Source of the DNA: Escherichia phage vB_EcoM_PTE-Eco05
Reading direction: 5' to 3' (one strand)
DNA length: 64,000 nucleotides
Sequence record: PQ306573.1
How positions within the stretch are numbered: the stretch's first letter is position 1; the number at the start of each line of letters is the position of its first letter. Made by a program: the position numbers and the translations under genes. A model generated the notes under the pieces. It made no database searches. It had not been told where the DNA came from and saw only the letters and a program-made list of their open reading frames with translations. Below are positions 2,131 to 64,000 of this stretch, one piece after another.

Positions 2131-2499
2131 ATGATTGAAATTAAATTGAAGAACCCTGAAGATTTTCTGAAAGTCAAAGAGACTTTGACCCGTATGGGCA
2201 TCGCTAATAACAAGGATAAAGTTCTTTATCAGTCCTGTCATATCCTCCAAAAGCAAGGTAAATACTACATCGTCCACTTTAAAGAAATGTTGCGTATGGA
2301 CGGACGTCAAGTTGATATCGATGGTGAAGACTATCAGCGACGTGATTCGATTGCCCAGTTGCTTGAAGACTGGGGATTGATTGTTATTGAAGACTCTGCT
2401 CGTGAAGATCTGTTTGGCCTTACTAATAACTTCCGTGTTATCTCTTTTAAACAGAAAGATGACTGGACTTTGAAAGCAAAATATACAATTGGTAATTAA
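2131..2499 (+). CDS. regA: Translational repressor RegA
   Basis: Track ORF 2122..2499; start moved to second ATG (MIEIKLK...) giving 122 aa; position between 62 and 43. Confidence 0.8.
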   Translation: MIEIKLKNPEDFLKVKETLTRMGIANNKDKVLYQSCHILQKQGKYYIVHFKEMLRMDGRQVDIDGEDYQRRDSIAQLLEDWGLIVIEDSAREDLFGLTNNFRVISFKQKDDWTLKAKYTIGN

Positions 2500-2502
2500 A
2501 GC

Positions 2503-2522
2503 AATGGGACTTCGGTCCCATT
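2503..2522 (+). terminator. UUCG-tetraloop stem-loop (aatgggac ttcg gtcccatt) between regA and gene 43; weak T-tract
   Basis: Perfect 8-bp stem with ttcg loop seen directly; only a short T run follows, so it may be a processing or regulatory hairpin. Confidence 0.4.
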
Positions 2523-2580
2523 TGGAGTATAATAAGTTCATCAACAAACAAAAGACAATAACTCGTCTAAAGGAAATTAA

Positions 2581-5292
2581 ATGAAAGAATTTTACTTAAC
2601 GGTTGAACAGATTGGTGATTCAATTTTTGAACGTTACATCGATTCTAATGGCCGTGAACGTACTCGTGAAGTAGAATATAAACCATCACTGTTTGCTCAT
2701 TGTCCAGAAAGTCAGGCTACGAAATATTTCGATATCTACGGTAAGCCGTGTACTCGTAAGTTGTTCGCTAATATGCGTGCTGCCTCCCAATGGATTAAAC
2801 GCATGGAAGATATCGGACTTGAAGCACTTGGCATGGACGATTTCAAATTGGCGTATTTGACTGACACTTATAACTATGAAATCAAATACGACCATACAAA
2901 AATTCGTGTGGCTAACTTCGACATCGAAGTAACATCTCCGGACGGGTTCCCTGAGCCGTCACAAGCAAAACATCCGATTGATGCTATCACCCATTATGAC
3001 TCAATTGACGACAGGTTCTACGTATTTGATCTATTGAATTCTCCATATGGTAATGTAGAAGAATGGTCTATTGAAATCGCTGCTAAGCTTCAAGAACAAG
3101 GCGGTGATGAAGTTCCATCCGAAATTATCGATAAAATCATTTATATGCCGTTCGATAACGAAAAAGAATTGTTGATGGAATATCTCAACTTCTGGCAACA
3201 GAAAACTCCTGTCATTTTGACTGGATGGAACGTTGAGTCATTTGATATTCCATATGTGTATAACCGAATCAAGAATATTTTTGGCGAATCTACTGCGAAA
3301 CGTTTATCACCACATCGTAAAACTCGTGTTAAAGTTATCGAAAACATGTATGGTTCTCGTGAAATCATTACATTGTTCGGTATCTCTGTTCTTGATTACA
3401 TTGACCTTTACAAAAAATTCTCTTTTACCAATCAACCGTCGTATTCTCTGGATTACATTTCAGAATTTGAATTGAACGTCGGTAAACTGAAATACGACGG
3501 CCCTATTTCTAAGCTTCGTGAAAGCAATCACCAACGATATATTTCTTATAACATTATCGACGTGTATCGTGTATTGCAAATTGATGCTAAGCGTCAGTTC
3601 ATCAACTTGAGTTTGGACATGGGTTATTATGCTAAGATACAGATTCAATCTGTGTTTAGCCCAATTAAAACATGGGATGCTATTATCTTTAATAGCCTTA
3701 AAGAGCAGAACAAGGTGATTCCACAAGGTCGTTCTCACCCGGTTCAACCTTATCCTGGCGCTTTTGTTAAGGAACCTATTCCAAATCGATACAAATATGT
3801 AATGAGTTTCGACCTTACATCTCTGTATCCAAGTATTATTCGCCAAGTGAATATTAGCCCGGAAACAATAGCAGGAACGTTTAAAGTAGCTCCACTGCAT
3901 GATTATATTAACGCAATCGCTGAACGTCCTTCAGATGTGTACAGTTGTTCTCCTAACGGCATGATGTATTATAAAGACCGTGATGGTGTAGTTCCAACTG
4001 AAATCACTAAGGTCTTTAATCAACGTAAAGAACATAAAGGTTACATGCTTGCAGCTCAACGTAATGGTGAAATAATTAAAGAGGCCTTACATAATCCTAA
4101 TCTTTCTGTTGACGAACCATTAGATGTTGATTATCGTTTCGACTTCAGTGATGAGATTAAAGAAAAGATTAAAAAGTTGTCTGCTAAATCTCTTAATGAA
4201 ATGTTGTTTAGAGCTCAACGTACTGAAGTTGCAGGTATGACTGCACAGATTAACCGTAAATTGCTCATCAACTCACTTTATGGTGCACTCGGCAACGTTT
4301 GGTTCCGTTATTACGATTTGCGTAATGCTACTGCAATCACAACATTTGGTCAAATGGCTTTACAGTGGATTGAACGTAAAGTTAATGAATATCTGAATGA
4401 AGTTTGTGGTACAGAAGGTGAAGCTTTCGTTCTTTATGGTGATACAGACTCTATTTACGTATCTGCTGATAAAATTATCGATAAGGTTGGTGAATCTAAA
4501 TTCCGTGATACCAACCATTGGGTAGACTTCTTAGATAAGTTTGCACGTGAACGTATGGAACCAGCTATTGATAGAGGTTTCCGTGAAATGTGTGAATACA
4601 TGAACAATAAACAACACTTAATGTTCATGGACCGAGAAGCTATCGCTGGGCCTCCGCTTGGTTCTAAAGGTATTGGCGGATTTTGGACTGGTAAGAAACG
4701 TTATGCATTAAACGTGTGGGATATGGAAGGTACTCGTTACGCTGAGCCTAAACTCAAAATCATGGGTCTAGAGACTCAGAAATCTTCGACTCCTAAAGCA
4801 GTACAGAAAGCTCTTAAAGAATGTATTCGTCGTATGCTTCAAGAAGGTGAAGAATCATTACAAGAATATTTTAAAGAGTTTGAAAAAGAATTCCGTCAAT
4901 TGAATTATATTAGCATCGCGTCGGTATCTTCTGCGAATAACATTGCTAAATACGACGTAGGTGGATTCCCGGGTCCTAAATGCCCGTTCCATATTCGTGG
5001 AATTCTGACGTATAACCGAGCTATCAAAGGTAATATTGATGCACCACAAGTTGTAGAAGGTGAAAAAGTATATGTTCTGCCTTTACGTGAAGGAAACCCA
5101 TTCGGTGATAAATGTATCGCATGGCCTTCTGGTACTGAAATCACAGATTTAATTAAAGACGATGTACTTCATTGGATGGACTACACTGTTCTCCTTGAGA
5201 AGACATTTATTAAACCGCTTGAAGGATTCACATCAGCAGCTAAACTCGATTACGAGAAGAAAGCATCTCTGTTCGATATGTTTGATTTTTGA
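2581..5292 (+). CDS. 43: DNA polymerase gp43 (family B, with 3'-5' exonuclease)
   Basis: 903 aa; exo motif FDIEV, polymerase motifs SLYPSII and YGDTDS. Confidence 0.95.
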   Translation: MKEFYLTVEQIGDSIFERYIDSNGRERTREVEYKPSLFAHCPESQATKYFDIYGKPCTRKLFANMRAASQWIKRMEDIGLEALGMDDFKLAYLTDTYNYEIKYDHTKIRVANFDIEVTSPDGFPEPSQAKHPIDAITHYDSIDDRFYVFDLLNSPYGNVEEWSIEIAAKLQEQGGDEVPSEIIDKIIYMPFDNEKELLMEYLNFWQQKTPVILTGWNVESFDIPYVYNRIKNIFGESTAKRLSPHRKTRVKVIENMYGSREIITLFGISVLDYIDLYKKFSFTNQPSYSLDYISEFELNVGKLKYDGPISKLRESNHQRYISYNIIDVYRVLQIDAKRQFINLSLDMGYYAKIQIQSVFSPIKTWDAIIFNSLKEQNKVIPQGRSHPVQPYPGAFVKEPIPNRYKYVMSFDLTSLYPSIIRQVNISPETIAGTFKVAPLHDYINAIAERPSDVYSCSPNGMMYYKDRDGVVPTEITKVFNQRKEHKGYMLAAQRNGEIIKEALHNPNLSVDEPLDVDYRFDFSDEIKEKIKKLSAKSLNEMLFRAQRTEVAGMTAQINRKLLINSLYGALGNVWFRYYDLRNATAITTFGQMALQWIERKVNEYLNEVCGTEGEAFVLYGDTDSIYVSADKIIDKVGESKFRDTNHWVDFLDKFARERMEPAIDRGFREMCEYMNNKQHLMFMDREAIAGPPLGSKGIGGFWTGKKRYALNVWDMEGTRYAEPKLKIMGLETQKSSTPKAVQKALKECIRRMLQEGEESLQEYFKEFEKEFRQLNYISIASVSSANNIAKYDVGGFPGPKCPFHIRGILTYNRAIKGNIDAPQVVEGEKVYVLPLREGNPFGDKCIAWPSGTEITDLIKDDVLHWMDYTVLLEKTFIKPLEGFTSAAKLDYEKKASLFDMFDF

Positions 5293-56992: not shown

Positions 56993-57025
56993 TTTATAAC
57001 AAGATAGGGCTATGTTATAGTAGTC
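56992..57025 (+). promoter_or_regulatory. Early-type promoter (GTTTATA, spacer, TATAGTAGTCC)
   Basis: Seen directly. Confidence 0.45.
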
Positions 57026-57054
57026 CTATCAAATCAAAAGTGAAGGAGAATAAA

Positions 57055-57303
57055 ATGAGATTGCAACGCCAGAGCATCAAAGATTCTGAAGTTAGAGGTA
57101 AATGGTACTTCAACATCGTTGGTAAAGATTCTGAACTTGTTGAAAAAGCTGAACATCTTTTACGCGATATGGGATGGGAAGATGAATGCGATGGATGTCC
57201 TCTTTATGAAGACGGAGAAAGCGCAGGATTCTGGATTTACCATTCTGACGTCGAGCAGTTTAAAGCTGATTGGAAAGTTGTTAAGAAAAATCTGAGGAAA
57301 TAA
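57055..57303 (+). CDS. Hypothetical protein (82 aa)
   Basis: Track ORF begins at a GTG at 57040; ATG 57055 follows aaggagaataaa. Confidence 0.5.
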   Translation: MRLQRQSIKDSEVRGKWYFNIVGKDSELVEKAEHLLRDMGWEDECDGCPLYEDGESAGFWIYHSDVEQFKADWKVVKKNLRK

Positions 57304-57305
57304 AA

Positions 57306-57893
57306 ATGCTTAAATTAGTATTCGCATGTGCTCCGACTAAAACAGTTGATGATAAACTGGAATATGCTTTTGGATTAGGTGATGGACTTCCATGGAAGCA
57401 TATCAAACAAGATATGAGTAACTTTGTTGCTCGCACTAAAAACACTGTAATGGTTATGGGTGCTAAGACATTTGCATCATTACCTCGTCTACTCCCAGAT
57501 CGTACTCATGTGGTTGTCACTGATATGGCCAGAGAACTGCCTAGGACCAAAACCAACGAACTTGCGCGTTTCTATATCACCCAATCTGAATTTATTACCT
57601 TGGTAATGGGTGGTGAAATTAACCTGTTTAGCACTGCAACTGACGTACCATTTAAACTTTCTACTGAACATGTTGATGTATCTGTTATTGGTGGCCCTGC
57701 TTTATTGAAACAAGCATTGCCTTATGCTGATGAAATCGTGATGACTAAAATCATTAAGAAATGTCGTGTTAATTCCGATGTTCAACTTGATAAAGATTTC
57801 GTCCAAGATATTATGCTTCAACGTTCTATGGTAGAATCTCATTACTACAGAATCGATGAACTCACCGAAATTACTGAGAGCGTTTATAAATGA
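57306..57893 (+). CDS. frd: Dihydrofolate reductase
   Basis: 195 aa; DHFR-like N-terminus (FACAPTKTVDDKLEYAFGLGDGLPWKHIKQDM) and position directly upstream of td. Confidence 0.8.
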   Translation: MLKLVFACAPTKTVDDKLEYAFGLGDGLPWKHIKQDMSNFVARTKNTVMVMGAKTFASLPRLLPDRTHVVVTDMARELPRTKTNELARFYITQSEFITLVMGGEINLFSTATDVPFKLSTEHVDVSVIGGPALLKQALPYADEIVMTKIIKKCRVNSDVQLDKDFVQDIMLQRSMVESHYYRIDELTEITESVYK

Positions 57894-58438
57894 AACAATA
57901 CCAATACCTGATTAAAGATATCTTAGAAAATGGCTACGAAACAGACGACCGTACAGGTACAGGCACTATTGCCCTGTTCGGAACTAAATTGCGATGGGAT
58001 CTGACTAAAGGATTCCCTGCGGTAACAACTAAGAAATTAGCATGGAAAGCTTGTATTGCCGAGTTACTGTGGTTCATGTCTGGCTCTACCAATGTTAATG
58101 ATTTGCGTATTCGTACTCATGGTAGTCTTATTCAAGGTAAAACTATTTGGGACGACAACTATGAAAATCAGGCAAAAGACCTTGGATATCATAGCGGCGA
58201 ACTTGGTCCTATTTATGGTAAGCAATGGCGTGATTTTGGTGGTGTAGACCAATTGGTCAAAACTATCGACCGTATTAAAGCTCTTCCTAATGATCGTCGT
58301 CAAATAGTTTCTGCATGGAACCCGGCTGAAATTGACCAAATGGCTCTTCCTCCTTGTCATATGTTCTATCAATTTAATGTGCGTAATGGACATCTTGATT
58401 TACAATGGTACCAACGCAGTGTTGATGTTTTCTTAGGT
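57890..58438 (+). CDS. td: Thymidylate synthase, exon 1
   Basis: TS motifs (RTGTGT, PPCH); coding sense ends at ...QRSVDVFLG and is followed by the canonical td intron 5' sequence taatt.aggcct. Confidence 0.9.
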
Positions 58439-59454
58439 TAATTTAGGCCTAGGTATAAGGTGACTTATACTTGTAATCTATCTAAACGGGGGACCTCTCT
58501 AGTAGACAATCCCGTGCTAAATTGTAGGACTACCCTTTAATAAATACTTCTATATAAAAAGAGGTGTTTATGAAAAGCGGAATTTATCAGATTAAAAACA
58601 CTTTAAACGGTAAAGTGTATGTTGGAAGTGCTAAAGATTTTGAGAAAAGATGGAAGAGGCGTTTTAAAGACCTTGAAAACGGTGTTCACTCTTCTATAAA
58701 ATTTCAAAGGTCTTTTAATAAACATGGTAATGTTTTTGAATGCTCTGTACTGGAAGAAATTCCATATGAGAAAGATTTGATTATTGAACGAGAAAATTTT
58801 TTGATTAAAGAGCTAAATTCTAAAATTAATGGATATAATATTGCTGATGCGTCTTTTGGCGATGTGCTTTCAAATCATCCATTAAAAGAAGAAATTGCTA
58901 AGAAACGAGCTGAAACTGTTAAAGCTAAGATGCTTAAGCTTGGTCCTGACGGTCGGAAAGCTCTTTATGGTAAACACGGAAGTAAAAATGGCCGATGGAA
59001 TCCAGAAAACCACAAGTTTTGTAAATGCGGTGTTCGCATACCATCTTCGGCCGATACTTGTGGAAAGTGCCGAAAACGTTCAGGTGAAAATAACCCGTTC
59101 TTTAATCACAAACATTCAGAAAAAACTAAAACTAAACTATCTGAAAAGATGAAAGGCAAAAAGCCAGCTAACATCAAAAAGATTTCATGCGATGGGATTA
59201 TTTTTGAATGTGCAGCCGATGCGGCTAGACATTTTGAAATTTCATCAGGATTAGTTACTTACCGTGTAAAATCTGATAAGTGGAATTGGTTCTACATAAA
59301 TGCCTAACGACTATCCCTTTAGGGAGTAGGGTCAAGTGACTCGAAACGATAGACAACTTGCTTTAACAAGTTGGAGATATAGTCTGCTCTGCATGGTGAC
59401 ATGCAGCTGGATATAATTCCGGGATAAGATTAACGACCTTATCTGAACATAATG
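58439..59454 (+). mobile_element. Group I self-splicing intron in td (1016 nt) carrying a homing endonuclease ORF
   Basis: Exon 1 ends in U (..cttaggt); intron ends ..ataatg; 5' and 3' core segments (gtgacttatacttg..., ...gggataagattaacgaccttatctgaacataatg) flank the ORF; spliced product restores ...FLG-LPFNIASY. Confidence 0.85.
58570..59307 (+). CDS. GIY-YIG homing endonuclease, I-TevI-like (intron-encoded)
   Basis: 245 aa from ATG after agaggtgttt; N-terminal GIYQIKN...GKVYVGSA GIY-YIG module; Cys4 zinc finger and C-terminal DNA-binding domain. Confidence 0.88.
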   Translation: MKSGIYQIKNTLNGKVYVGSAKDFEKRWKRRFKDLENGVHSSIKFQRSFNKHGNVFECSVLEEIPYEKDLIIERENFLIKELNSKINGYNIADASFGDVLSNHPLKEEIAKKRAETVKAKMLKLGPDGRKALYGKHGSKNGRWNPENHKFCKCGVRIPSSADTCGKCRKRSGENNPFFNHKHSEKTKTKLSEKMKGKKPANIKKISCDGIIFECAADAARHFEISSGLVTYRVKSDKWNWFYINA

Positions 59455-59766
59455 CTACCGTTCAACATTGCCTCGTACGCTGCCTTGACGCATATTGTAG
59501 CGAAGATGTGTAACCTTATCCCAGGTGATTTAGTGTTCTCAGGCGGCAACACGCATATCTACAGCAATCATGTAGAACAATGCAAAGAAGTTCTTCGTCG
59601 TGAACCTAAAGAGTTGTGTTCTCTTGAAATTAATTGGCCTAGTAATTTTGAGAATTGGCCTACAAAAATCCAAATGGACTGGGTTACTGGAACGATGACA
59701 CATTCTGATTTCGTTCTTAAAAATTACGAATCTCATCCAACTATCAAAGCTAAAATGGCGGTATAA
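59455..59766 (+). CDS. td: Thymidylate synthase, exon 2
   Basis: Begins LPFNIASYAALTHIV... (TS C-terminal core); joined exons give about 286 aa. Confidence 0.88.
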   Translation, partial: LPFNIASYAALTHIVAKMCNLIPGDLVFSGGNTHIYSNHVEQCKEVLRREPKELCSLEINWPSNFENWPTKIQMDWVTGTMTHSDFVLKNYESHPTIKAKMAV

Positions 59767-60021
59767 ATGATTTTACGTTTTATTAATTCATATGGCACCA
59801 CAATTTTTGAAATGAAAAATCCAAGTGAACTGGATATCCCTTCACCGAATAGTGAAATCACAGTTAAAGGTGAACGATTCATTTGTTATTCACATGAACG
59901 AATTTATGAATATCGTGAATTTTGTGGTGGTTACGGTATGGAAAAAGAACCATTGGTTTATTTCGATATCACGGTCTTGACACCTAAAGAATACGAAGAA
60001 ATTATTGCTGAGGATAATTAA
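59767..60021 (+). CDS. Hypothetical protein (84 aa)
   Basis: ATG directly after td stop. Confidence 0.45.
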   Translation: MILRFINSYGTTIFEMKNPSELDIPSPNSEITVKGERFICYSHERIYEYREFCGGYGMEKEPLVYFDITVLTPKEYEEIIAEDN

Positions 60022-60108
60022 CGCTTCAGTTTAAAAGTGTATAATAAATTAACGGGATAAATACTATCCCGTTTGGAGTAATGTCTATCAACCTATACTG
60101 AGGAATAT

Positions 60109-61533
60109 ATGCAAGTAACTAAGAGCAGTGGTGTATCCCAAAATTTTGATGCACAGAAAATTATTCAAGTCTTAACTTGGCAATGTGAAGGAACACAAAT
60201 TGACCCATATGAATTGTACGAAGAAATTAAGACCCATCTTGTCGACGGGATGAGCACCAAAGATATCCAGAAGATTTGTATTAAAGTTGCAGCTAACTCG
60301 ATTTCTGTCGAAGAACCTGATTATCAGTATGTCGCCGCCAAAGGGCTAATGTTTGCACTTCGTAAAGATGTATATGGGCAGTTTGAACCGCCTGCTTTTA
60401 TCGACCATATTTCTTATTGTGTTAATGAAGGCAAATATGACCCTGAGCTGTTGTCTAGATATTCTGCAGAAGAAATCATTTATCTTGATTCTCGGATTAA
60501 ACATGAGCGAGATTTTGACCTGACTTATGCTGGTGCTATGCAGCTTAAAGAAAAATACCTGGTTAAAGATAAAACAACTGGGAAGATTTATGAAACTCCA
60601 CAGTTTGCTATCATGGCTATCGGTATGGCCTTACACCAAGACGAAACTCATGACCGTTTGAAACATATTATTCGTTTTTATGATGCCGTTTCTACTCATC
60701 AAGTTTCATTGCCAACCCCAATTATGGCAGGTGCTCGTACTCCAACTCGCCAGTTCTCTAGTTGTGTAGTTATTGAAGCCGGTGATTCGTTAAAATCTAT
60801 TAACAAAACTTCAGCATCAATTATTGAATATATTTCTAAACGAGCTGGTATTGGTATCAACGTTGGTATGCTTCGTGCAGAAGGTTCTAAGATTGGTATG
60901 GGTGAAGTTCGACATACAGGTGTTATTCCATTTTGGAAACATTTCCAAACTGCAGTAAAATCTTGTTCTCAAGGTGGTATTCGTGGTGGTGCTGCTACAG
61001 CGTATTATCCGATGTGGCACTTAGAAGTAGAGAACCTATTAGTTCTGAAAAATAACAAAGGCGTGGATGAAAACCGTATTCGACATATGGACTACGGAAT
61101 TCAGATTAATGACCTCATGATGGAACGCCTTGGTAAAAATGATTATATTACTTTATTTAGCCCTCACGAAATGTCAGGCGAACTATACTACTCGTTCTTT
61201 GAAGATCAAGATAAATTCCGTGAGCTTTATGAGAAAGCTGAAAAAGACCCAACAATCAGAAAGAAAAGAATCAAAGCACTAGAACTCTTTGAATTGTTCA
61301 TGACTGAACGTTCTGGTACTGCTCGAATTTATCCACAGTTTGTTGATAACACGAATAACTACACTCCGTTTATTCGTGAAAAAGCTCCAATTCGTCAGAG
61401 TAACTTATGTTGTGAAATCGCTATTCCAACTAATGATGTGAATAGCCAACAAACCCGTTTAATCAAAATTAAGAAGTCGGATGTAGCTAAGTTTTATGAA
61501 GCTAATCCTGGCGGTATAATTCAAAGCAAATAA
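60109..61533 (+). CDS. nrdA: Ribonucleotide reductase large subunit, N-terminal fragment (NrdA-a)
   Basis: 474 aa; class Ia NrdA through active-site SNLCCEIAIPT..NDVN, then about 30 non-homologous residues and a stop. Confidence 0.85.
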   Translation: MQVTKSSGVSQNFDAQKIIQVLTWQCEGTQIDPYELYEEIKTHLVDGMSTKDIQKICIKVAANSISVEEPDYQYVAAKGLMFALRKDVYGQFEPPAFIDHISYCVNEGKYDPELLSRYSAEEIIYLDSRIKHERDFDLTYAGAMQLKEKYLVKDKTTGKIYETPQFAIMAIGMALHQDETHDRLKHIIRFYDAVSTHQVSLPTPIMAGARTPTRQFSSCVVIEAGDSLKSINKTSASIIEYISKRAGIGINVGMLRAEGSKIGMGEVRHTGVIPFWKHFQTAVKSCSQGGIRGGAATAYYPMWHLEVENLLVLKNNKGVDENRIRHMDYGIQINDLMMERLGKNDYITLFSPHEMSGELYYSFFEDQDKFRELYEKAEKDPTIRKKRIKALELFELFMTERSGTARIYPQFVDNTNNYTPFIREKAPIRQSNLCCEIAIPTNDVNSQQTRLIKIKKSDVAKFYEANPGGIIQSK

Positions 61534-61578
61534 AGTACACAGACCGTTAATAAATAATCCATAACAAGAGGAAAAGTT

Positions 61579-62289
61579 ATGGATTATTCTAAAATTTACA
61601 ATAACCTTATTTCTAAAGCTAAGAATAGAAAATTAGATTGCTATACCGAATCACACCATATTATACCTCTGTGTATTGGTGGTTCTGATACAAAGGAAAA
61701 CCTGGTAGATTTGACACCAGAAGAGCATTACATAGCTCATCAATTATTAGTAAAGATATATCCAGATAATCATAAATTGATATTTGCCGCTAATATGATG
61801 TGTGTTTATTCTAAAGATAATATTGAACGAAAGAACACCAATAAACGCCATGGGTGGCTTAGAAGAAAATTGGCTATTTCTGTATCTGAAAATAATAAAG
61901 GCAAACCAGCTTGGAACAAAGGTATTCCTATGTCTCCAGAAGTTAAATCTCGACTTCAAACATCTTGGGTGTTTACATTTCCGGATGGTCATGAGGAAAT
62001 TCATCGAGGTCTTAACGAATTTTGTAAAGAGCATAATTTAAATCCATCTGCAATGTCAGCCGTTTGTAAAGGTAAACGGGCGCATCACAAAGGATTTAAG
62101 TGTAAGAAATTGGATAAGATTTCAGAGCTTGATAATTTAGTTTTCGTCAGTAAACCTCATCCAAAGGGATTAAAACCCCATAACTTAATTGCTGTAAAAA
62201 TAAACGGTATAGAATATCAATCAATACATCGAGCATCTAAAGCTTTAGGAATTACTAGAAAAAAGGTAGAAGAATTAAATGAATATTGA
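61579..62289 (+). CDS. HNH homing endonuclease inserted within nrdA
   Basis: 236 aa; HNH motif ESHHIIPLCIGGSDTKENLVDLTPEEHYIAH; C-terminal putative DNA-binding modules; own RBS aagagga. Confidence 0.8.
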   Translation: MDYSKIYNNLISKAKNRKLDCYTESHHIIPLCIGGSDTKENLVDLTPEEHYIAHQLLVKIYPDNHKLIFAANMMCVYSKDNIERKNTNKRHGWLRRKLAISVSENNKGKPAWNKGIPMSPEVKSRLQTSWVFTFPDGHEEIHRGLNEFCKEHNLNPSAMSAVCKGKRAHHKGFKCKKLDKISELDNLVFVSKPHPKGLKPHNLIAVKINGIEYQSIHRASKALGITRKKVEELNEY

Positions 62290-63268
62290 TTATGAATTTG
62301 TAGATGAATTTTACGAAGATGATGAGTATACTACAATAAAAGTTATTGAAAACAAGGGAGAAGTGGGGCTTTGTACTCTCTCTGCATTCGTATTAGATAA
62401 ATTTGATTGGCAAGACCAAGATAAAATTAATGAACTTGCTGAAGTACAAGTACGTGCACTTGATAACCTGTTAGACTATCAAGATTATCCGGTTCCAGAA
62501 GCTTTAAAAGCTAAAAAGCGTCGTAATCTTGGTGTTGGTGTTACGAACTATGCTGCATGGTTAGCTTCTAACTTTGCTTCATATGAAGACGCTAACGATT
62601 TGACTCATGAATTGTTTGAGAGATTGCAATATGGCCTTATCAAAGCATCAATCAAACTCGCCAAAGAAAAAGGATGTTGCGAGTATTATTCAGACACTAA
62701 ATGGTCTAGAGGCGAATTACCTATCGACTGGTACAATAAAAAGATTGACCAAATCGCAGCCCCGAACTACGTCTGTGACTGGGAAGAACTTCGAGCTGAA
62801 CTCAAAGAACATGGAATTCGTAACTCAACGTTGTCTGCACTCATGCCTTGTGAGTCAAGCAGTCAAGTATCGAACTCTACAAACGGGATTGAGCCCCCAC
62901 GTGGTCCAGTAAGTATTAAAGAATCTAAAGAAGGCAACTTCCGACAGGTTGTTCCTAATATCGAACATAACATGAGTCTTTACGACTACGCGTGGAAACT
63001 TGCTAAGAAAGGTAATAAACCTTATTTGACCCAAGTTGCTATCATGTTGAAATGGGTGTGCCAATCTGCTTCTGCTAATACTTACTACGACCCTGCAGTA
63101 TTTGAGAAAGGTAAAGTGCCAATGTCAGTAATGCTTGACGATCTGCTTTACTTCTGGTACTTTGGCGGAAAAAACCTCTACTATCATAACACCCGTGATG
63201 GGTCAGGTACAGATGACTATGAATTAGAAACACCTAAAGCTGAAGATTGCTCTGCTTGTAAGCTTTAA
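62279..63268 (+). CDS. nrdA: Ribonucleotide reductase large subunit, C-terminal fragment (NrdA-b)
   Basis: 329 aa; resumes at ...GEVGLCTLSAF and contains SALMPCESSSQ and C-terminal CSACKL; start overlaps endonuclease gene end. Confidence 0.85.
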   Translation: MNIDYEFVDEFYEDDEYTTIKVIENKGEVGLCTLSAFVLDKFDWQDQDKINELAEVQVRALDNLLDYQDYPVPEALKAKKRRNLGVGVTNYAAWLASNFASYEDANDLTHELFERLQYGLIKASIKLAKEKGCCEYYSDTKWSRGELPIDWYNKKIDQIAAPNYVCDWEELRAELKEHGIRNSTLSALMPCESSSQVSNSTNGIEPPRGPVSIKESKEGNFRQVVPNIEHNMSLYDYAWKLAKKGNKPYLTQVAIMLKWVCQSASANTYYDPAVFEKGKVPMSVMLDDLLYFWYFGGKNLYYHNTRDGSGTDDYELETPKAEDCSACKL

Positions 63269-63313
63269 GACTTTTGATTATAATTTACTCATGGATGAGT
63301 TAATAACTAAGTG

Positions 63314-64000
63314 AGAAAATATAATGAGTACAGTTTTTAATACACAACAAGTCGATGTTTTGAACGAACCGATGTTCTTTGGTTCTGGTCTTGGTCTTGC
63401 ACGGTATGATATTCAGCGTCATAAAGTTTTTGAAGAACTTATAGAAAAATCCTTGTCATTTTTCTGGCGCCCCGAAGAGGTAAACTTAATGTTGGACTCT
63501 GCACAGTTCAATAAGCTTCCTCAGTTCCAACAGGACATCTTTACAAACAATCTTAAGTATCAATCATTATTGGATTCTATCCAAGGCAGGGCCCCATCTG
63601 CGGTACTTATGGCACTGCTTTCCGACCCTTCATTAGATACGTGGGTTGCAACATGGACATTCAGTGAAACTATTCACTCTCGTTCATATACTCATATTAT
63701 GCGAAATCTTTATACCGATCCATCCAAAGTATTTGATGAGATTGTATTAGACGAAGCAATCATGAAACGAGCTGAATCAATAGGTAAATATTACGATGAT
63801 GTTCTAGTCAAGACTCGTAATTGGGAAAATGCTAAAGAATTTGTAGAACTAGCTAAAGAATCTCCTGATGCCGACTTTCGTTTAAACCGAGCTATTAAAC
63901 AAGAAGCCGAAGCTAAACGTGCTTTAATGAAATCTCTTTACCTCTGTTTGCACGTTATTAATGCCTTAGAAGCTATTCGTTTTTATGTATCTTTTGCGTA
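63314..64000 (+). CDS. nrdB: Ribonucleotide reductase small subunit NrdB, 3' partial (runs off window)
   Basis: MSTVFNTQQVDVLNEPMFFG... with ferritin-like diiron motifs; no stop before window end. Confidence 0.85.

Follow-up and report, generated by a model that had tools for sequence, protein, structure and literature searches.

The nrdA gene of Escherichia phage vB_EcoM_PTE-Eco05 (PQ306573.1), within the 64,000-nt stretch that we analyzed (hereafter the window, to which coordinates refer), is divided into two genes by a gene for a mobE-like, free-standing HNH homing endonuclease. Very probably, this locus arose by insertion of a mobE-family cassette, the two NrdA fragments being translated separately and, with no splicing involved, combining into a composite and active ribonucleotide reductase (RNR). 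All features lie on the plus strand. The first gene, nrdA-a (60109..61533; 474 residues), encodes the N-terminal fragment of the class Ia RNR large subunit, as identified from its open reading frame (ORF), Pfam matches and alignments. It is followed by the mobE-like gene (61579..62289; 236 residues) and by nrdA-b (62279..63268; 329 residues), which encodes the C-terminal fragment, and the small-subunit gene nrdB, whose 5' part occupies 63325..64000, begins 56 nt downstream of nrdA-b. Judged by sequence and anatomy, the locus is a member of the known system of Aeromonas phage Aeh1, in which mobE likewise splits nrdA, and not a new phenomenon.

The position of the break is sharply defined. NrdA-a tracks T4 NrdA through ...SNLCCEIAIPTNDVNS (S446) and then continues for 28 unrelated residues (QQTRLIKIKKSDVAKFYEANPGGIIQSK), a basic tail whose coding sequence with its TAA stop codon spans 61447..61533. 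NrdA-b opens with an acidic head of 26 unrelated residues (MNIDYEFVDEFYEDDEYTTIKVIENK; 62279..62356), rejoins T4 NrdA at GEVGLCTLSAF and runs to the C-terminus CSACKL. Against the 523 positions of the RNR barrel profile of Pfam, NrdA-a covers 1-221 (the first half) and NrdA-b 219-523 (the second half); the ATP-cone and the all-alpha domain are also on NrdA-a. In alignment with Escherichia coli NrdA, the first fragment matches residues 403-455 and the second restarts at 454. Because the alignments stop and resume there, the equivalents of N437, C439 and E441 stand on a different polypeptide from that of C462. NrdA-a holds C219, N432, C434 and E436 (E. coli C225, N437, C439 and E441), and NrdA-b holds C32 (E. 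coli C462), the Tyr-Tyr pair (LYYHNTRD) and the C-terminal CSAC, so that the three domains, active-site residues, tyrosine pair and C-terminal cysteine pair of a class Ia NrdA are all present across the two fragments. The split separates the active-site triad N/C/E from the second redox cysteine.

Much of this layout had been anticipated by a sequence-only reading of the window, and its elements can now be given precisely. The roughly 30 extra codons that it saw after the NrdA homology are the 28 following S446, and the ribosome-binding site that it assigned to the HNH gene is a GAGG located 7 nt upstream of the ATG. The second ORF, said to overlap the end of the endonuclease gene and to rejoin NrdA at GEVGLCTLSAF, does so with an overlap of 11 nt and a 26-residue head, and the distance from the nrdA-a stop to the HNH start, put at about 45 nt with none on the other side, is exactly 45 nt. 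Its placing of catalytic residues on two polypeptides agrees with the E. coli alignments, which separate the C462 equivalent from the N/C/E residues. The endonuclease ORF is in the frame of nrdA-a, with two stop codons between them (61531 and 61555), and nrdA-b is in a different frame. An assembly artefact was also considered, and is excluded because 34 independent phage records share the arrangement. The closest match to the locus comes from the Mosigvirus Escherichia phage JM17, with 98.3% identity across 3.4 kb. GenBank entries for these phages annotate two nrdA genes and a homing endonuclease, and we found no paper describing the coliphage members in the searchable literature.

Alignment of the window with T4 and with the intact relative vB_EcoM_G2285 sets the bounds of the insert. 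A cassette of 912 nt (61448..62359), comprising the tail coding sequence, a leader, mobE and the head coding sequence, stands in place of 8 nt (CTGATGCT, Pro-Asp-Ala) of an intact T4-type nrdA. vB_EcoM_G2285 is the nearest intact relative, with a contiguous gene of 751 residues that is 97.9% identical in nrdA. The cassette contrasts with its surroundings, being 98-100% identical to those of the Tequatroviruses fPS-2 and 236Ecol005PP, with which the flanking nrdA shares only 66-86% identity. In comparison with fPS-2, the cassette (61448-62359) has six mismatches, and the flanks match perfectly as far as 61432 and 62392; beyond these two positions, a mismatch occurs every few bases. Synonymous divergence (dS) between the window and phage PEC04 is likewise 0.19-0.35 within the cassette and 2.4-2.8 in the flanks. 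The 33 nt of nrdA directly after the cassette (62360..62392) are identical to fPS-2, and five of six clustered differences from vB_EcoM_G2285 at 62359-62389 fall within them; on this pattern of identities, 62360-62392 is a co-conversion tract.

The distribution of the cassette tells a similar story. It is present in full in 34 of 50,697 phage records, with both ORFs intact in every one, and occurs as two variants, represented by 16 records at >=99% identity (that is, at least 99%) and 16 at 90-95%. About 143 records carry the nrdA backbone of the window at 95-99% identity; among the best 25 of these matches, 22 are uninterrupted and three (JM17, AV111 and ZQ3) have the cassette. Relatives whose nrdA is 97-98% identical have an intact gene, a protein search with NrdA-a returned almost only near-identical, full-length T4-type proteins, and 251 database sequences are represented by one intact protein of 751 residues that shares 99% identity with the NrdA-a core. 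Since the cassette is near-identical in divergent backbones and absent from close relatives, it moves laterally. Taken together, the transfer, co-conversion and polymorphism data form the signature that is expected of a recently spreading homing element. The divergent backbones, co-converted flank and presence/absence polymorphism are also consistent with site-specific cleavage of cassette-free alleles and with super-Mendelian inheritance.

The two extensions are conserved parts of the system. The 33 residues after IPT in NrdA-a have a net charge of +3 and an isoelectric point (pI) of 9.7, and the 26-residue head of NrdA-b has a net charge of about -7 by direct count (-8 and pI 4.1 for its first 30 residues). 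A basic tail and an acidic head (pI about 10 and 4.1) were found in all five endonuclease-bearing loci measured, of which the window and PEC04 are near-identical copies of one cassette. Older lineages of the cassette were available from metagenomes (L011 and L013) and from Aeh1. The window shares with all three the motif LxKxKKS(D/E)VxKF in the tail and FYEDDEYTT in the head, the latter as the conservative variant VYEDEEYTT in Aeh1. Among L011, L013 and Aeh1, synonymous sites are saturated (proportion of synonymous differences, pS, 0.51-1.0), every catalytic residue is kept, and the proportion of nonsynonymous differences (pN) between lineages is 0.12-0.32 for the head, 0.20-0.53 for the tail and 0.24-0.42 for MobE, with both NrdA halves also well below pS. 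These values indicate that both NrdA halves, the tail, the head and MobE are under purifying selection across lineages. In a further locus (contig L015; ENA ERZ27315285 k141_73620, 2478-5008) the endonuclease gene has been lost and the two nrdA genes, 77 nt apart, keep the basic tail and acidic head. The split state of nrdA seems to outlast the endonuclease.

A second conserved element lies in the leader of mobE. The 45-nt spacer and the first mobE codons build an RNA hairpin (61553..61588) with a 13-bp stem and a 10-nt loop, which is supported by folding (-13.8 kcal/mol), by shuffling (z-score -4.1, with none of 200 shuffles as good) and by covariation. The mobE AUG (61579) lies within the 3' arm, and the Shine-Dalgarno sequence GAGG (61568-61571) within the loop. 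Between the window and L011, two stem pairs are altered on both sides (C-G to U-A and A-U to G-C), one of these compensatory changes coinciding with an Asp2-to-Asn substitution in MobE. The hairpins of L013 and Aeh1 are unrelated in sequence and are equally placed, over their Shine-Dalgarno sequences. The 5' arm in the window is overlapped by a late-promoter-like box, AATAAATA (61549..61556), and an (N)ATAAATA box is found at or just before the 5' arm in all four lineages (window, L011, L013 and Aeh1). In the scheme described for I-TevI and for Aeh1 mobE, a hairpin in the early read-through mRNA blocks translation, and a late promoter within the hairpin frees the start (PMC2988022). The window has both a leader hairpin over the mobE start and, close by, a box that could act as the promoter, and its leader would match this regulatory scheme. 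Within the final 20 nt of mobE, every lineage further shows a Shine-Dalgarno-like element for nrdA-b; translation of NrdA-b need not depend on that of MobE, because nrdA-b has this element of its own.

The product of the mobE-like gene carries an HNH catalytic motif and a NUMOD-type DNA-binding module. It matches I-HmuI_NUMOD-like in Pfam with 37.5 bits (cut-off 27) and PHROG 655, 'homing endonuclease', with an E-value of 4.7e-59, and its SHHIIP...ENLV...EH motif aligns with T4 MobE. In the cassette variant of phages PEC04, HY01 and F2, the block corresponding to window positions 61929-62144, in mid-mobE, is only about 70% identical, and the cassette ends are near 100%. Phage F2 combines a backbone of the window type with this PEC04/HY01-type block. 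The endonuclease gene is a mosaic, because the mid-mobE block diverges while the cassette ends stay near-identical, possibly through exchange of the DNA-binding module.

A locus of this kind could in principle be read in other ways. If the HNH ORF lay in a group I or other self-splicing intron, the spliced mRNA would give a normal NrdA, and T-even phages do have introns of this type in td, nrdB and nrdD, including one 2 kb upstream in the window. A permissive Rfam scan of 57000-64000, accepting E-values up to 10, nevertheless found the td intron and no match in 61447-62359. The sequence-only reading had judged a group I core unlikely on grounds of space, and this bears it out: only 45 noncoding nt precede the ORF and none follow it, and no ribozyme core (P3-P8) was found. 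Each fragment, moreover, has its own stop or start, the conserved extensions are under purifying selection, and mature Aeh1 proteins retain their tails (PMC3045599), which together make the intron extremely improbable. Scarcely more can be said for the tail and head as halves of a split intein, perhaps a degenerate one, that trans-splices the fragments into one NrdA. Split-intein nrdA genes are known that break only 11-15 codons upstream, at C439 (in phage TG1 and in metagenomic proteins), and a degenerate-intein origin of the tails was raised by Crona et al. (PMC3045599). Yet, with 28 and 26 residues, tail and head are far too short, the fragments in the window have no Hint or intein match in Pfam, the head is not followed by Cys, Ser or Thr (...ENK/GEV), and genuine C-inteins at C439 (...ILVHN/C) are unlike it. 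Mass spectrometry found the tails of Aeh1 to be unprocessed (PMC3045599), and we give trans-splicing next to no weight. The free-standing HNH insertion that the sequence-only reading had preferred, creating a split and presumably functional RNR with no RNA splicing, agrees in all the parts that can be checked in silico, including the lack of an intein signature.

An inactivating insertion, leaving non-functional fragments and a phage that depends on the host NrdAB or its own NrdD, deserves more thought, and we consider it unlikely. Phage nrdA is non-essential in nrd+ hosts (known from T4; table in PMC5931544), and the cassette is so young in the coliphage backbones that decay might not show yet. 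Decay is not what the wider sample suggests, however: both ORFs are intact in 34 of 34 records, the halves, tails and catalytic residues are conserved in L011, L013 and Aeh1 with pN well below pS, the locus without an endonuclease still keeps both halves and their extensions, and the Aeh1 enzyme is fully active (PMC3045599). Several points do weigh against a separately translated, active composite enzyme encoded by a regulated homing cassette. Activity is not guaranteed, because a phage can do without its nrdA where the host supplies NrdAB; the biochemistry comes from Aeh1 alone, the window and the other coliphage members being known from their genes. The constraint is seen only across the older lineages, and the cassette is too recent in coliphage backbones for selection after insertion to be measured. 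The HNH match in Pfam, at 18.2 bits, is under the gathering score of 21.4, and the MobE-like protein is a putative homing endonuclease with predicted cleavage activity and target. Finally, AATAAATA differs by one mismatch from the T4 late promoter TATAAATA, of which no exact copy was found in the cassette, and its use as a promoter is presumptive.

With these points in mind, we propose that a mobE-family HNH cassette was copied into the loop at the nrdA active site of a Mosigvirus-type T-even coliphage. The mobile unit of about 912 nt would have brought the endonuclease gene, its regulatory leader and two coding stubs, which became the basic tail of NrdA-a and the acidic head of NrdA-b. Both fragments would be translated separately from a single nrd transcript, with neither RNA nor protein being spliced, and would associate into a composite large subunit with C219, N432, C434 and E436 on a different chain from C32. 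Together with NrdB, this composite is predicted to form an active (alpha-a/alpha-b)2 beta2 reductase, in which the tail and head, by analogy with Aeh1, would be needed for dimerization and NrdB binding. On the early read-through mRNA, the hairpin that buries the AUG would restrain translation of the endonuclease, and a late transcript starting from the box inside the 5' arm would be unable to form the hairpin. Spread between co-infecting phages may occur via break-induced gene conversion, which would drag along a short stretch of donor nrdA.

If so, the coliphage loci extend to phages infecting E. coli, Shigella, Yersinia and Salmonella, which are genetically tractable, what experiments have addressed only in an Aeromonas phage: an essential enzyme put back together from two polypeptides that an endonuclease has split. 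What the present analysis adds is the boundaries of the cassette, its transfer between genera and presence/absence polymorphism, the covariation of the hairpin, the constraint on the extensions and a lead on their origin. Endonuclease, leader and assembly tails travel between phage genera as a single cassette, and the system offers a natural setting for the study of homing, co-conversion and the idea of a 'self-neutralizing insertion' in T4 genetics. In practice, annotation pipelines need to allow for two nrdA genes at such loci and should not treat them as pseudogenes.

The lead on the origin of the tail and head comes from other phage NrdAs. Crona et al. reported no database match for the tails, and suggested as their source either foreign DNA that came in with mobE or a degenerate intein (PMC3045599). 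A contiguous insertion of about 50-55 residues is present in the same NrdA loop in the Acinetobacter T4-like phages ZZ1 and KARL-1, Vibrio phage vB_VmeM-32, Xanthomonas phage XacN1 and others. The query region is matched by about 67 Acinetobacter-phage records, and the loop is contiguous in all 45 of the matches listed. Such a loop is missing from the intact relatives of the window, of T4 and of Aeh1. When the tail and head of L013 are joined, they align with a ZZ1-type NrdA in one stretch of ungapped length (122 residues to 366 nt, 49% identity, E-value 5e-33). A BLASTP search with the loop only, the conserved flanks having been removed, gave an E-value of 4e-7 over 36 residues spanning the break point, and a profile of four tails scored 13.8 bits on the ZZ1 loop, equalled by none of 2000 shuffles. 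The signal comes from the tail (z-score 9.8 for that of L013). The end of the head, VIENKGEVGLC, resembles the native loop AIENKREIGLC of TG1 NrdA, which fits a donor-exon origin.

Other observations weaken this connection. The tail of the window itself is marginal against the ZZ1 loop (z-score 2.5), and heads alone have no significant similarity to the Acinetobacter-phage loop. In tblastn with the head, a low-complexity filter masked its acidic residues 1-17 and weakened the search. No similarity to the tails was detectable in the loops of vB_VmeM-32 and XacN1. On balance, we would put even odds on the tail and head being the two halves of a native NrdA loop of about 55 residues, and not random foreign DNA. 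On this view, mobE would first have landed in a donor NrdA, within a loop domain that was dispensable and self-associating; the halves would now accompany the endonuclease as donor exon sequence picked up by co-conversion, and the cassette would supply an 'assembly bracket' of its own to nrdA genes without the loop, such as those of relatives of T4, Mosigvirus and Aeh1. The reverse direction may also apply, with contiguous loops being the healed scars of lost cassettes. We found no statement of homology between the tail or head and a contiguous NrdA loop in the searchable literature. If the extensions turn out to be a native loop cut in two, the published origin of these assembly peptides would need revising.

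The td gene just upstream of nrdA contains a group I intron (Rfam Intron_gpI, 59176-59406, E-value 1.6e-6, 36 bits, below the gathering score), with td exon 2 at 59452-59766. The ORF of this intron (58564-59307) encodes an intact I-TevI-type GIY-YIG endonuclease of 247 residues with all four I-TevI Pfam domains. The annotation of the near-identical JM17 places an nrdB intron endonuclease just past the end of the window, which makes three homing endonuclease genes within about 7 kb. At 63256-63284, overlapping the end of nrdA-b and upstream of nrdB, is a match to a sigma-70-like promoter (TTGTAA, 17 nt, TATAAT) that resembles the separate nrdB promoter of T4. Elsewhere, 236Ecol005PP has an annotated DNA adenine methylase between nrdA-b and nrdB (L005 4686-5477), the position of mobE in T4, and the nrdA of KARL-1 (L016 1-3607) is cut at a different, more N-terminal site into gp058 and gp060, with a 299-residue hypothetical protein, gp059, between them.

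Among known systems, the closest is that of Aeromonas phage Aeh1. Its genes-in-pieces RNR with a mobE-split nrdA was reportedly described by Friedrich and coworkers in PNAS in 2007, and the nrdA-a/mobE/nrdA-b system is said to have been treated by Gibb and Edgell in the same year. The insertion site, after the NxCxE motif and before the C462 equivalent, is the same, as is the gene order nrdA-a, mobE, nrdA-b, and the dimensions hardly differ: 473, 237 and 323 residues in Aeh1 against 474, 236 and 329 in the window, with a spacer and overlap of 46 and 14 nt against 45 and 11 nt. The MobE proteins are 45% identical over 227 residues, at full length (E-value 1e-57). The NrdA-a alignment runs on into the tail (QQTRLIKIKKSDVAKF in the window, KEKMLFKVKKSEVDKF in Aeh1), and that of NrdA-b begins at residue 3 of the head (IDYEFVDEFYEDDEYTTIKV and IEHERIYEVYEDEEYTTVEI, respectively). 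Aeh1 likewise has a hairpin over the mobE translation start and a late-promoter-like box, although its hairpin covers the Shine-Dalgarno sequence whereas that of the window buries the AUG. The two also differ in host phage genus and in genomic position. The window type is found in Mosigvirus and Tequatrovirus coliphages at the usual td-nrdA-nrdB position, and Aeh1 is a Cinqassovirus in which nrdA-a, mobE, nrdA-b and nrdB cluster at 40-45 kb, about 160 kb from td (at about 204 kb). Unlike Aeh1, the window member provides direct evidence of recent transfer between genera. Aeh1 in turn provides the biochemistry: its NrdA-a and NrdA-b exist as separate polypeptides that retain their extensions, with unprocessed tails by mass spectrometry, and they form a fully active (NrdA-a/NrdA-b)2 NrdB2 enzyme (Crona et al., 2011; PMC3045599). 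The heterodimer of alpha-a with alpha-b dimerizes with dATP and binds NrdB; removal of both extensions leaves the heterodimer and abolishes dimerization and NrdB binding, with activity about 2000-fold lower (PMC3045599).

T4 offers two further comparisons. Its own mobE lies in the same operon and is also a free-standing homing endonuclease gene, but it sits in the nrdA-nrdB spacer and splits nothing (Edgell, Gibb and Belfort, 2010; PMC2988022), whereas the mobE of the window splits nrdA and the nrdA-nrdB spacer there is empty, with no mobE. The N-terminal HNH domain of T4 MobE is 46% identical over 127 residues to the endonuclease of the window, and the C-terminal, DNA-binding halves are unrelated. 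The mobA gene of T4 resembles the window cassette in being an HNH mob gene within the gene of an essential enzyme, although its target is not nrdA but topoisomerase II, which it splits into gp39 and gp60 (Bonocora et al., 2011; bioRxiv 10.1101/2022.08.31.505936; cryo-EM in PMC11461880). The mobA cassette also holds a 50-nt ribosomal bypass, and nothing comparable was seen in the cassette of the window. In the cryo-EM structure of T4 topoisomerase II, the extra insertion is an 'assembly bracket' (PMC11461880). This split of topoisomerase II is the nearest analogue outside RNR.

Within RNR, the 'fractured' nrdA genes with split inteins also come as two genes; the break lies in that active-site region too, and a homing endonuclease often separates the halves (Dassa et al., 2009; PMC2677866). 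These split-intein genes break at C439, 11-15 codons upstream of the mobE site, and their products are rejoined by trans-splicing, whereas the fragments of the window lack intein blocks and, by homology to Aeh1, would not be ligated. NrdA C-terminal fragments that start with a C-intein (...ILVHN/C) at C439 were seen in P0010 (Yersinia phage vB_YenM_TG1), P0011, P0018, P0041, P0053, P0117, P0120 and P0121. The same stretch of the nrdA active site is therefore a target of two different mobile elements.

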